A stretch of DNA of 26,521 nt from a virus (taxonomy: Duplodnaviria; Heunggongvirae; Uroviricota; Caudoviricetes), in IMG/VR virus record IMGVR_UViG_2875722834_000004; one strand, written 5' to 3'. Each line of letters starts with the position of its first letter. Position 1 is the stretch's first letter. Both the position numbers and the translations under genes were made by a program. Below are positions 4,600-8,900 of this stretch, piece after piece. The notes below the pieces were generated by a model that made no database searches, was not told the DNA's origin, and was given only the letters and a program-made list of their open reading frames with translations.

Positions 4600-4694
4600 T
4601 ATCGCGTCCTCAACAATGAATTTTGTGATGCAGTGCCTGGTGCCTCCAGGTGACGTTAACCAGTTAACAATTAACGCCGGATAGCAGGGAGGAT

Positions 4695-5036
4695 TTGGCG
4701 TGTGCGCAGTGGATCTGGGGGCGGATCGTGGGTCTCTACGAACAGGCAGCCAGTGATGATGGCGAGATCATGCGACCAAAAGAGCCTAACTGGACTGCCT
4801 GGGCCAATGACGTGCGCACAATGCGGATGCTGGATGGCAGAAGCCACAGACAAATTTGCGAAATGTTTGGTCGGGTTCAGCGAGATCCATTCTGGGTAAA
4901 AAACATCATGAGCCCGTCAAAGCTCCGCGAAAAATGGGACGAACTGGTCATCCGCCTGGGACGTTCACCTGTACAGCGTTGTGTTAATCATATTTCTGAA
5001 CCGGATACAGAAATTCCGCCTGGTTTCAGAGGATAA
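4695..5036 (+). CDS. Hypothetical protein, possibly an N-terminally truncated remnant
   Basis: 113-codon open frame, but the only start near the AGGGAGG Shine-Dalgarno (4686-4692) is a TTG 2 nt away; in-frame GTG at 4728 and ATG at 4770 are alternatives. No family recognised. Confidence 0.35.
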   Translation: MACAQWIWGRIVGLYEQAASDDGEIMRPKEPNWTAWANDVRTMRMLDGRSHRQICEMFGRVQRDPFWVKNIMSPSKLREKWDELVIRLGRSPVQRCVNHISEPDTEIPPGFRG

Positions 5037-5076: not shown

Positions 5077-5499
5077 GTGGCAAAAGTTTTTACACAAGAG
5101 GAGCGGGAAAAAATTAAATGGCAGGTGGTGGAACTCGTGCGCCAGAGCGGCCGTGAGACGTTACGGCAACTGGAAGCTAAAACAGGTGCGACTAGATATC
5201 TGATGAGCGTTCTTGCCAGAGAGCTGGTAGCCAGTGGCGATGTATACAACTCCGGCTACGGGTTATTCCCCTCTGAACAGGCGCGTAAGGACTGGCAAAA
5301 CGCCCGCAAAAAACTCTCGAGGGCAAAGGTGAAGAAACCTGCTGTGGTTGATCCGGACCTTATCTGGTCATCACCTGACGGAGAAATACGTCGCTACGAC
5401 AGTCGCCTAAACATAATCTGTCGCGAGTGCCGGAAGAGCGAAGTTATGCAGCGCATACTGGCTTTCTATCAGGGTAATTTTCAGGACGTGGCGCAGTGA
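5077..5499 (+). CDS. Hypothetical protein (140 aa)
   Basis: GTG start preceded by a strong SD (AAGGGGGA, 5066-5072); stop overlaps the start of the next gene (GTGAGTG). Protein is basic with a central helix-rich region; no family recognised. Confidence 0.6.
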   Translation: MAKVFTQEEREKIKWQVVELVRQSGRETLRQLEAKTGATRYLMSVLARELVASGDVYNSGYGLFPSEQARKDWQNARKKLSRAKVKKPAVVDPDLIWSSPDGEIRRYDSRLNIICRECRKSEVMQRILAFYQGNFQDVAQ

Positions 5500-5942
5500 G
5501 TGCACCGGCAACCATTCTTGATATGTGCTGTGGCAGCCGCATGTTCTGGTTCGATAAGTCTGACGAACGGGCGATATTCAGCGATATCAGAAAAGAAGGA
5601 TACACATTACGCAATGGGAGACGCTTGATTATCAGCCCTGACATTATCGCAGATTTTCGTGCATTATCATTTGCAGACGCATCTTTTTCGATGGTTGTAT
5701 TAGACCCTCCGCATCTTGAGAGTGTTGGTGATAACGCCTGGATGGGAAAGAAATATGGACGGCTGAATAAAGATGCCTGGCGTGATGATTCGCGACAGAG
5801 ATTTAAAGAAGCCTTTCGGGTGTTGAGGCCGCACGGCGTTCTGATTTTTTAATGGAATGAAACGCAAATACCGGTAAGCCAGATTCTGGCACTGACAGAC
5901 AGAAAACCTGTTATCTGTCAACGAACAGGGAAAAAACGATAA
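5496..5942 (+). pseudogene. Phage Dam-like N6-adenine DNA methyltransferase interrupted by an in-frame TAA at 5850-5852
   Basis: 118-aa ORF contains a DPPH motif (variant of the DPPY/F motif IV of N6-adenine methyltransferases). The same frame stays open for 30 more codons after the TAA (…HGVLIF*WNETQIPVSQILALTDRKPVICQRTGKKR*). A single substitution (AAA to TAA) would explain the stop. Confidence 0.55.
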
Positions 5943-6114
5943 AACCCACTGGATTATTTTTATGAAAGAGGCATCCAGTGAGTAGATTCGTAAGGCTACA
6001 GATACGTATATCTGAATAATTAAATTCAGTTCTGTAAATAAAATTTAATCCTTAACCGGATGGATTTCTGCACCCTCAGAACATCAGGAGGCCGCCCGAA
6101 AGGGCGGTAGTGAA

Positions 6115-6225
6115 ATGCGAAAGTTCAAAATTATTATTGAAACGGGAATAGCTGGTGGAGATTTTGAGGATGTATTCGAAGTGGACGATGACGCAACACC
6201 TGAGGAAATTCATGACGGAGCATAA
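6115..6225 (+). CDS. Short acidic ORF (36 codons), possibly the 5' part of a decayed gene
   Basis: ATG at 6115; ends at TAA 6223-6225; frame reopens for 23 more codons to TGA 6295-6297. Preceded by a CCGCCC-GAAA-GGGCGG hairpin (6092-6107). Confidence 0.2.
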   Translation: MRKFKIIIETGIAGGDFEDVFEVDDDATPEEIHDGA

Positions 6226-6274
6226 GAAATTTTCTTTAACTACTGCAATTACTCATACCACGAAATAAAAGACG

Positions 6275-6466
6275 ATGAGGAAGAACAAAGTGGCTGATTT
6301 TTGTTCAGCTAAATATAACATCAGTTTTGAAGAGCGGGATGAACTATTAATGGACTATGGTGAGTTACGCGGTGGAAGTGCTGCTGATGTCGAATCCTAG
6401 CGTGATGACTATGAAGCGGGAAAAACTCCGGTCGAAGCATATTGTGATGAGTGGGGCGATGAATGA
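6275..6466 (+). pseudogene. Short ORF with internal in-frame TAG (6398-6400); possible decayed phage gene
   Basis: ATG 6275; 41 codons, TAG, then 21 codons ending …YCDEWGDE with the stop overlapping the next ATG (ATGA). Confidence 0.25.
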
Positions 6467-6750
6467 GCGAGATTAATTATCAGGAAGGGCATGAAACGGC
6501 GGGGCAAGCAAAACCAGTGGCATGGCGATATCGCTACGTGAAAAAAGGCGTTACGGACTTTCAGGGGAAGTAGTGGTCTGGTGACTGGAAATATGTACCG
6601 AAAAAAGAGGATTGTAACGACAGGCCGAACTATCAAATTCAGGCCTTATTCACTGCCTCACCAGTCCCAGTTACATCAGAAGAACTGGTTAAAGCTGTGC
6701 ACTTTTATGAACAACTAAAACGCGAAAATCCACCAACATCCGGCAACTAG
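6463..6750 (+). pseudogene. ORF with internal in-frame TAG (6571-6573); possible decayed phage gene (~95 codons)
   Basis: MSEINYQEGHETAGQAKPVAWRYRYVKKGVTDFQGK*WSGDWKYVPKKEDCNDRPNYQIQALFTASPVPVTSEELVKAVHFYEQLKRENPPTSGN*; 59 codons stay open after the TAG, which is unlikely by chance. Confidence 0.3.
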
Positions 6751-7004
6751 ATTAATGGATTAACTATGTCGGTTAAACGACCAGCCAACTGAAAAAGCGG
6801 AAACCTGATTACAGGTTGCCAGATAAGGCAATGAGCTACCTGGCGCGGAACGGACTGATAAGTATGGGGAATGTTTTACGATGAACCTTTAGACTAAAGA
6901 GTTTGTAACGCTATGTAAGTGATTTTTTCTGGTTTAGATATTTATATGTCCGGCCAAATTGAGGTGTGTTTAAATGTAATTGCACATTGATTGTAGGAGG
7001 AATA

Positions 7005-7184
7005 ATGAAAAACGCATTGCAGTTTTTGTTTGTTGCGTTCTGGTTGTTCGCATCATGTATGCCCATCATCTTCACAGCAAGGTATATGGAAAAAGTTGAT
7101 GTTTTGATATTAATATTTGGATATATAAATGCCCTTTTTTTAGGGGTGTTCATGGCGGTCATGTGCATTGAATACTGGCGGTAA
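7005..7184 (+). CDS. Small hydrophobic protein (59 aa, two predicted transmembrane segments)
   Basis: ATG 7 nt downstream of a consensus AGGAGG (6995-7000); protein MKNALQFLFVAFWLFASCMPIIFTARYMEKVDVLILIFGYINALFLGVFMAVMCIEYWR; lies in an AT-rich islet. Confidence 0.5.
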   Translation: MKNALQFLFVAFWLFASCMPIIFTARYMEKVDVLILIFGYINALFLGVFMAVMCIEYWR

Positions 7185-7439
7185 ATACAGCGAACTCCAT
7201 TGGTTTAGTTGGATATTTACTGTGCTGGACAAAAACGGTTTGCGGGGAAATCTTAGTTAAGTAGAATGACTGCGGGTGCTTGAGGCTATCTGCCTCGGGC
7301 ATGGACACCAACGGCAGATAGAGAAAAGCCCCAGTTAACATTACGCGTCCTGCAAGACGCTTAACATTAATCTGAGGCCAATTTCATGCTAGACACATGT
7401 AGGTTAGCCTCTTACGTGCCGAAAGGCACGGAGAAGCAG

Positions 7440-8900
7440 GCTATTGTTAACACCAAGCTGTAATGTCCCCTTTGAACCATTCTAAAATGTCCCCAGACAA
7501 TTCTCTGGGGGATTTTTCATGATCAAAGAGACTGTTACGATGAGTCATAAGGAACTCCACCGACTTCAGATTATTCAGGAACAAGCTGCGGCACGCATTG
7601 GCATTTCTATTCGGCAGGTTAAACGTCTGGTGCAACGGTATAGAAATGAAGGGCCTTCTGGTCTGGTTTCCCACCGACGTGGAAAGCGTCCTAATAATTC
7701 CTTTTCTACTGAATTCAGAGCAACAGTAATTTCACTCCTCAAAGGCCGTTACGCTGATTTTGGACCTACGTTTGCGTGCGAAAAATTGCGCGAGATACAC
7801 GGTTTATCTTTATCCGTTGAAACTCTCAGAAAGTGGATGATAGAAGAGGGGTTATGGCGTGAACGCCGTCGTAAAATTGCCCGTATATATCAACGCCGCA
7901 TGCGACGACCATCTTACGGTGAACTGATCCAGATTGATGGCTCACCTCATGACTGGTTTGAAAATCGAGGCCCCAGATGTACACTGATCGTTTTCATTGA
8001 TGATGCCACCAGTGCGTTGATGGCGTTGCGTTTTGTGCCTGCTGAAACAACCCGGGCTTACATGGAAACCCTCCGGGGTTACCTTAATGATCATGGCGTA
8101 CCGCTCGCTCTCTACTCTGATAGACACAGTATATTCAGGGTAAATAACCCAGAGCGGGAAGGTGAGCTGACCCAGTTCACTCGTGCGATAAAGACACTGG
8201 GCATCGAGCCAATCCATGCCAACAGCCCGCAGGCAAAAGGGCGGGTAGAGCGCGCCAATCAGACACTACAGGACAGGCTGGTCAAAGAAATGCGGCTTCA
8301 GAATATCAGTGATATTGAAACAGCAAATGCATGGTTGCCGACCTTTATTGAAGCCTATAACAACCGGTTCGCTACGTCGCCTCGTACTACTGATAATGCT
8401 CATCTTGATGTGCACCATTCTGAAGAGGAACTGGGTTATATCTTCAGCCTACAGGCGAAGCGCGTTCTGTCTAAAAATCTCACTTTCCAGTACAAAAGCA
8501 GTGCGTTTCAGGTACGCAGTGAGGGCCGGGGATATCGACTTAGGCATTCGGTTGTTACTGTATGCGAGAACTTTGACGGTGAAATTAACGTTCTGTATGA
8601 CGGGAAAGCGCTGGGCTGGGAAAAGTATGTTGATGGCCCGGAGCCTATACCACTGGATGATGAAAAGAGTGTCCATGAACGAGTGGATAATGCCCGTATT
8701 GATTTACGCTCAAAATACTATGTTAAACCTAAAGCTGACCATCCCTGGCTTACGCGCCGAACGCAAAGTCATCAGCAAGTTAAGCCCCCGAAGTTACCTA
8801 AAAAGAAGCCTGATCCCGATAAAAAAGATTGAAACCAAGATCGATTCGGTTGAGTGCATATCCATTCATAGGGTAGATTCTTAAGTCGCGTTTCTGGTGT
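7440..8900 (+). mobile_element. Putative insertion sequence carrying the 437-aa transposase (ends not defined)
   Basis: Single transposase ORF replacing the segment where Qin carries dicA/dicC/ydfABC; a hairpin (CCCCAGA...TCTGGGG, 7489-7507) sequesters the GGGGGA SD-like sequence before the ATG. I could not identify terminal inverted repeats or a target duplication by eye. Confidence 0.3.
7519..8832 (+). CDS. DDE transposase/integrase (rve core), IS481/ISNCY-like, 437 aa
   Basis: N-terminal HTH-like region, then DDE triad candidates (IQIDGSPHDW, YSDRHS, SPQAKGRVERANQTLQ). Confidence 0.8.
   Translation: MIKETVTMSHKELHRLQIIQEQAAARIGISIRQVKRLVQRYRNEGPSGLVSHRRGKRPNNSFSTEFRATVISLLKGRYADFGPTFACEKLREIHGLSLSVETLRKWMIEEGLWRERRRKIARIYQRRMRRPSYGELIQIDGSPHDWFENRGPRCTLIVFIDDATSALMALRFVPAETTRAYMETLRGYLNDHGVPLALYSDRHSIFRVNNPEREGELTQFTRAIKTLGIEPIHANSPQAKGRVERANQTLQDRLVKEMRLQNISDIETANAWLPTFIEAYNNRFATSPRTTDNAHLDVHHSEEELGYIFSLQAKRVLSKNLTFQYKSSAFQVRSEGRGYRLRHSVVTVCENFDGEINVLYDGKALGWEKYVDGPEPIPLDDEKSVHERVDNARIDLRSKYYVKPKADHPWLTRRTQSHQQVKPPKLPKKKPDPDKKD

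Follow-up and report, generated by a model that had tools for sequence, protein, structure and literature searches.

The run of in-frame stop codons studied here very probably reflects the ordinary pseudogene decay of four accessory early lambdoid genes, which would be drifting neutrally in the Qin prophage lineage of E. coli. The window, by which we mean the whole 26,521-nucleotide stretch that was analysed (IMG/VR record IMGVR_UViG_2875722834_000004), carries between positions 5496 and 6750 a series of rightward reading frames (ORF1 to ORF4) that a preliminary description had taken for four consecutive ORFs, each interrupted by exactly one stop codon and without frameshifts. It had considered this pattern unusual for random decay and had proposed either the point-mutational silencing of a toxic early-gene block or genuine micro-ORFs. 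Comparison with homologues gives a different picture. All four genes have intact full-length homologues, and in the window all four carry disabling lesions, which add up to five nonsense mutations, a +1 insertion in a homopolymer, a 4-nt deletion, a 90-nt deletion and one lost ATG. The impression of single stops without frameshifts arose because the ORF boundaries had been drawn without homologues.

The prophage and the setting of the gene block

Its gene content and integration site identify the window as Qin, a cryptic and defective lambdoid prophage that E. coli carries between rspB and ydfJ. Besides that site we found dicB, ydfD, relBE, ydfU, ydfT, csp genes and pinQ; the Qin/Kim prophage of K-12 MG1655 (1632277-1652745) has all of these as well, its cold-shock genes being cspB/F/I, and also has rrrQ and tfaQ in common with the window. 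Over the shared parts, the identity between the window and the annotated Qin of MG1655 is 99.7-100% (BLAST). In the literature Qin is described as a ‘grounded’ prophage, ridden with mutations and very variable in size (PMC6379469).

Identical copies are found in the RefSeq records of KL53 and HH107, with rspB on one side and a truncated ydfJ on the other. In these records the order of the genes begins with int, xis, an exonuclease gene (exo), ydfD, dicB, the 3' remnant of a replication gene, a DUF977 gene and the decayed block; it continues with the ISNCY transposase, flxA, ydfV, relB, ydfU, ydfT (Q), the cold-shock genes (cspBFI) and lysis genes, and ends with truncated terminase and tail genes, tfaQ and pinQ. 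Of relE, KL53 has the complete gene and HH107 only a part, and annotations of hokD and rem are confined to KL53. The block under study has the replication genes on one side and the Q antiterminator on the other; the coordinates of its genes and of the features on either side are collected in Table 1.

Table 1. Coordinates of the decayed genes and of neighbouring features in the window
Feature	Position	Strand	Basis or remark
Replication (O-like) gene, 3' remnant	4683..5036	+	Flagged ‘incomplete; missing N-terminus’ by RefSeq in KL53 and HH107 (identical copies)
Class I SAM-dependent (DNA) methyltransferase pseudogene, small, phrog_954 (ORF1)	5496..5985	+	Translation and DNA alignment with homologues
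DUF7167 / phrog_1997 pseudogene, 60 aa (ORF2)	6115..6297	+	Alignment, PF23768 and phrog_1997
phrog_519 pseudogene, 58 aa (ORF3)	6290..6466	+	Alignment and phrog_519 profile
phrog_660 pseudogene, remnant of a 171-codon gene (ORF4)	6463..6884	+	Homologue translations and tail alignment
ISNCY-family transposase ORF, 437 aa	7519..8832	+	Insertion immediately 3' of the decayed block

Compared with the fuller copy in ATCC 8739, the deletion that left the replication-gene remnant took dicA, dicC, dicF, ydfABC and a YdaT-like gene from the window; dicA, dicC, dicF and ydfABC are kept by both ATCC 8739 and K-12, and the BLAST match of the window to K-12 stops at window position 4687. With this upstream deletion, the early rightward promoter of the decayed block is lost as well. 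The K-12 prophage, which has retained dicA, dicC and dicF, differs from the window in the opposite sense further downstream: everything is deleted from ydfX to window position ~8648, including the whole studied interval, and ydfX is joined almost directly to ‘ydfW’, which corresponds to the last 49 codons of the ISNCY transposase ORF. Set against K-12 in this way, the window is at an earlier stage of decay in the accessory block and at a later stage in the immunity region.

Intact homologues of the four genes

Homologues were collected from megablast and tblastn searches of deposited phages, from the annotated regions of several of those phages, and from two exact-pattern scans of IMG/VR (~200 loci). 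The codon counts over 125 copies given below were taken from an alignment of trimmed sequences.

Translation of the window bears out one in-frame stop in each of the four frames as they had been drawn: TAA at 5850-5852 in the frame from the GTG at 5496, TAA at 6223-6225 in the frame from the ATG at 6115, TAG at 6398-6400 in the frame from the ATG at 6275, and TAG at 6571-6573 in the frame from the ATG at 6463. The earlier counts of 23 and 21 open codons after the second and third stops are also correct, but those after the first and fourth (30 and 59) are off by one, the actual numbers being 29 and 58. In ~100 intact homologues from other prophages, the codons at the four positions encode Lys, Lys, Trp and Gln/Pro, respectively. 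Since homologues have sense codons at all four positions, the four stops are nonsense mutations in longer genes, and the proposal of genuine micro-ORFs fails on the same evidence, as the intact homologues read straight through.

An intact lambdoid cassette of E. coli, represented by vB_EcoS-640R1, vB_EcoM-606R7 and pPE4 and, for the methyltransferase, by Stx2c_EH0430, has the same gene order and the same overlaps as the window. The nucleotide identity between the two is ~87-92%, and they have phrog_954, phrog_1997/DUF7167, phrog_519 and phrog_660 in common; unlike the window, however, most copies of the cassette are open across the stop codons. Some of them have lesions of their own, namely 606R7, with a TAG in ORF3 at the same Trp codon as in the window, albeit in a different background, and 640R1, with a TAG and an A8 frameshift in ORF4.

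Lesions in the individual genes

In the methyltransferase gene, the codon at 5850 is AAA (Lys) in all 78 outgroup copies and TAA in Qin-type copies, and tblastn alignments cross the stop (residues 1-146). Contrary to the claim that frameshifts are absent, DNA alignment with an Stx2c phage and a Klebsiella phage revealed a +1 insertion of an A in the A-run at 5931-5936: homologues read GGN AAA AAC GAT at this point, whereas the window reads GGG AAA AAA CGA TAA, which changes GKND to GKKR*. The insertion point is 27 codons beyond the first TAA; the frameshift yields an in-frame TAA at 5940-5942, while in the shifted frame positions 5938-5985 still spell out the original C-terminus (DKTHWIIFMKEASSE*). 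Intact homologues are ~160-175 aa long (one has 175 aa) and contain ...VLIFKWNETQIPV...RTGK(N/G)DKTHWIIFMKE, and those of the 78 outgroup copies that are long enough show GK(N/G)DKTHW. Where a TAA copy includes the A-run, it has the shift, with the exception of a single locus (L218).

As to the family of this protein, an intact relative with 84% identity matches the phrog_954 ‘DNA methyltransferase’ profile over its full length (E=3e-88). The label ‘Dam-like’, used in the preliminary description, was dropped: no match to the Dam family (MethyltransfD12, GATC N6-adenine) emerged from sequence searches of Pfam, NCBIfam and the PDB, with only a sub-threshold hit to Methyltransf_11 in Pfam, nothing significant in NCBIfam and no relative in the PDB, and the PHROGs annotation is DNA methyltransferase. 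RefSeq covers only 5496-5852, as a normal 118-aa CDS (WP_001310834.1, ‘class I SAM-dependent methyltransferase’). According to the alignments, WP_001310834.1 is a truncated and frameshifted pseudogene fragment, which is new with respect to RefSeq.

ORF2 has a sole lesion, AAA>TAA at 6223-6225; among the 125 aligned copies this codon is AAA (Lys) in 101 and TAA in 21. When the stop is reverted to Lys, the protein matches PF23768 at residues 2-53 (E=1e-13; 51.6 bits, with a gathering cut-off of 24.4). The RefSeq note on this gene, over the span given in Table 1, reads ‘DUF7167 family protein, internal stop’. A conserved hairpin was also seen ahead of 6115, at the ribosome-binding site.

The start assigned to ORF3 by the preliminary description, the ATG at 6275, turned out not to be that of the gene. 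Homologues start at the equivalent of 6290, with an ATG where the window has GTG (6290-6292), i.e. the start codon has been lost, and the ATG at 6275, which is in the same frame, arose through a GAA>GAT change (6274) specific to this lineage. The nonsense mutation at 6398-6400 is TGG>TAG, and the alignment of 125 copies has TGG (Trp) in 101 and TAG in 21 at this codon; one copy has TAA in place of the window's TAG. The overlap with the next gene that had been described is real, the TGA of ORF3 (6464-6466) forming an ATGA with the following start (6463-6466). An intact relative matches phrog_519 with E=4.5e-23. Positions 6290-6466 are without annotation in the RefSeq records checked, and the phrog_519 pseudogene recognised there by alignment and profile is new with respect to RefSeq/PGAP.

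The largest number of lesions was found in ORF4, intact homologues of which have 119 or 171 aa and match phrog_660 (E=2e-74). At 6571 the 125 aligned copies have TAG (45), CCG (32), CAG (25) or, in the rest, other sense codons. The TAG that ended this ORF in the preliminary description is itself a nonsense mutation (CAG>TAG at 6748-6750, with CAG in homologues); the count of exactly one stop per gene therefore does not hold, and the gene once ran to 6884. In addition, there is a 90-nt in-frame deletion at ~6732/6733, between two AATCC(A/G)CCA repeats, and a 4-nt deletion at ~6781/6782, which puts the conserved C-terminus (..LPDKAMSYLARNGLISMGNVLR; ..YLARNGLISMGNVLR) in a shifted frame up to 6884. 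RefSeq describes the gene, over the span in Table 1, as ‘frameshifted; internal stop’.

Spread of the allele and stepwise decay

Among the matches listed at the top, complete E. coli genomes are 100% identical to the window over 5400-6850. At least 80% of this interval is covered in 374 E. coli genomes, the matching places number 7185 in the 5426 complete E. coli genomes, and the full set of lesions recurs in ~30 IMG/VR contigs. Wherever Qin-type copies span the whole block, the TAA of the methyltransferase occurs together with the stops in ORF2 and ORF3. The same lesions are present in PhiR42_1, a Qin-type genome of 48.7 kb whose lambda-like head and tail module is complete; a literature search for PhiR42_1 / ECOR13 returned no paper on that phage. 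Because of the complete identity in the top-listed strains and the presence in PhiR42_1, the lesions are, on the sequences compared, old in comparison with the allele's spread, and a phage that otherwise looks intact can carry them.

Other copies carry different parts of the lesion set or have added to it. The TAG and the 90-nt deletion in ORF4 are common to the window and the 640R1-type lineage, in which the methyltransferase gene is absent, ORF2 and ORF3 are intact and ORF4 is further frameshifted at A7/A8. Within Qin, a sub-lineage of five loci (L024, L070, L075, L082 and L086) has an added 1-nt deletion in ORF4, another locus (L103) has an A8 run in the ORF4 region, and further 1-2-nt indels occur in related copies of the block. 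Extra frameshifts and rearrangements, which the preliminary description had itself named as the sign of ordinary decay, are therefore seen both in the genes of the window and in sister copies.

Substitution pattern

The window was polarised against intact copies, a base being called derived when it was shared by <5% of the outgroup copies; as lambdoid phages are mosaic, polarisation against the majority outgroup is approximate. On this basis, there are 58 lineage-specific nucleotide changes in ~355 codons, with 16 synonymous, 31 non-synonymous and 4 nonsense codon changes. The share of single-base changes that create a stop is 5.1% if all changes are weighted uniformly and 4.2% if transitions are given more weight, and the number of nonsense changes expected among 58 substitutions is 2.4-3.0, compared with the 4 observed (probability of at least four, 0.22-0.35). 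An excess of nonsense mutations was thus rejected, and, contrary to what had been suggested, the pattern is not unusual for random decay: the nonsense count agrees with the expectation under neutral drift. Nor is the block unusually conserved within the Qin clade, since its mismatch density (3.5-7.0 per kb) is similar to, and no lower than, that of the flanks. Within the limits of the approximate polarisation, the substitution pattern looks neutral and would fit relaxed constraint.

A promoter scan of 5400-7600 found promoter-like sites to be no more numerous than in shuffled sequences. Terminator-like sites in the same interval number five, compared with 1.3 expected.

Discussion

Our results are best explained if the Qin lineage tolerates the loss of the four accessory genes, i.e. 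of the small DNA methyltransferase and of the three small proteins that belong to DUF7167/phrog_1997, phrog_519 and phrog_660, in keeping with the identical lesions in a Qin copy whose head and tail genes look intact. This tolerance may stem from repression of the genes in the lysogen. Because their loss is tolerated, lesions of every ordinary kind would have built up step by step, probably with point mutations and small indels coming first and outright deletion following later, as in K-12. The suggestion of point-mutational silencing was correct in so far as these are longer genes with point mutations, but not in taking the pattern as non-random and hence as a sign of selected silencing. Readthrough, recoding or selected silencing are not needed as a mechanism, and we infer that the fragments are neither expressed nor functional.

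It is conceivable that one or more of the intact genes, e.g. the methyltransferase, harm the lysogen, and that a selective sweep of knock-out alleles in E. coli followed. The decayed allele is indeed widespread and nearly invariant and occurs in the structurally complete PhiR42_1, and a favoured truncation would look alike; moreover, another lineage of the methyltransferase has a nonsense codon of its own (T*RDD, 5 loci), and the TAG at the ORF3 Trp codon of phage 606R7 is either independent or recombined. We nevertheless consider such selection improbable. Across other prophages, the four codons are preserved in the majority of sampled copies (78 for the methyltransferase, 101 of 125 for ORF2 and likewise for ORF3), so strong toxicity is unlikely; the number of nonsense mutations agrees with the prediction for neutral drift; any lesion gained by a gene that was already dead (the second stop, the frameshifts, the deletion) must be neutral; and the window has lost the early promoter region too. 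There is a similarly slim chance that the knock-out state or a truncated product, be it the 118-aa fragment or a 36-41-aa peptide, benefits the lysogen. If true, such a benefit would explain the near-invariance of the decayed allele and its persistence in PhiR42_1.

Even less probable in our view is that the pieces between the stops are real small proteins (peptides of 36-41 aa and the 118-aa N-terminal part of the methyltransferase), or that the stops are read through or recoded. RefSeq does retain WP_001310834.1 as a named protein, and the gene overlaps and the hairpin upstream of ORF2 persist, but the homologues continue past these positions, further frameshifts are gained by relatives that share the stops, and the truncated methyltransferase is without the conserved C-terminal third (FKWNE...DKTHW). 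With TAG- or TGA-recoded gut phages the window shares the presence of in-frame stops (here TAG and TAA) in several consecutive phage genes; it differs from them in that the stops are found in one lineage only, frameshifts occur alongside, the host is E. coli with its standard code, and an ARAGORN scan found no suppressor tRNA in the window. The amino acids aligned with the stops also differ, being Trp (ORF3) or Gln/Pro (ORF4) for TAG and Lys for TAA, which gives no consistent reassignment, and recoding or suppression was rejected on these grounds. Nor does an intact conserved frame continue past the stops, given the +1 shift in the methyltransferase and the broken ORF4, so readthrough would not restore the proteins. 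The chance of a sequencing or assembly artefact is negligible, that reading being refuted by the identical sequence in independently sequenced complete genomes and in the IMG/VR contigs.

Ordinary decay of this block was already largely known, in that Qin is recognised as mutation-ridden and NCBI PGAP flags two of the four genes as pseudogenes in RefSeq records of identical sequence. Where the present comparison departs from PGAP, which has the methyltransferase fragment as a normal CDS and leaves the phrog_519 pseudogene without annotation, it leads to two small corrections: WP_001310834.1 would be better described as a pseudogene fragment, and a phrog_519 pseudogene would be added to the annotation. 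A more general lesson is that a run of ORFs with single stops can stem from boundaries set without homologues. For the biology of Qin the finding otherwise carries little weight; it shows the stepwise decay of this prophage at one of its stages.

Distribution of the decayed block

The decayed block recurs in Escherichia phage PhiR42_1 (PV340562.1; loci L002/L230 in our collection), a 48.7 kb sequence from source ECOR13 deposited as 'phage', where it differs from the window by a single mismatch, at position 6069. The PhiR42_1 sequence also includes lambda-like head and tail genes as a complete module; a literature search for PhiR42_1 found no paper on the phage. The block was also matched at 100% in NZ_CP026085.1, a 4.83 Mb genome labelled E. 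coli DH5alpha, whereas K-12 MG1655 lacks it entirely, and the label may be wrong or the strain may not be derived from K-12.

The Qin copy in the window has also lost DNA upstream of the block. At a junction near 4687 (region ~4600-5036), dicB-upstream DNA is fused to the 3' remnant of the O-like replication gene, whose 5' part is missing together with dicA, dicC, dicF, ydfA-C and a YdaT-like gene. The Qin copies of E. coli KL53 and HH107 show the same loss, whereas that of ATCC 8739 retains all of these genes.

Stop codons and neighbouring elements

In the methyltransferase gene (within 5845-5852) and in the DUF7167 gene (within 6220-6225), the ochre codon results in each case from an AAA>TAA transversion. 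At 5850 the change falls on the boundary of a T5/A3 run (TTTTTAAA > TTTTTTAA), and we speculate that it arose from misalignment at the homopolymer junction. Among the IMG/VR loci, a separate methyltransferase lineage (L148, L151, L163 and relatives) has its own in-frame stop at a Trp codon (..NKDT*RDD..); furthermore, many methyltransferase copies terminate at ..IIFMK*, 5-7 codons short of the others.

Features flanking the DUF7167 gene and the decayed block
Feature	Position	Location
AGGAGG	6087-6092	upstream of the DUF7167 gene ATG (6115)
Hairpin, 7-bp G+C stem, GAAA loop	6091-6108	between AGGAGG and the ATG at 6115
ISNCY-family transposase, 437-codon open frame	7519-8832	just 3' of the decayed block

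A near-identical transposase sequence is annotated in ATCC 8739 (RefSeq) as two features, a 'partial transposase' pseudogene and the gene 'ydfW'. The ydfW gene of K-12 is the final 49 codons of the transposase frame.

The hairpin is predicted to be stable (-16.9 kcal/mol, z = -3.1). An alignment with three homologous phages, which covered its 3' half but not the 5' arm, shows that half to be conserved. The hairpin could place a distant Shine-Dalgarno sequence beside the start codon of the DUF7167 gene or, alternatively, could serve as a processing or stability element.
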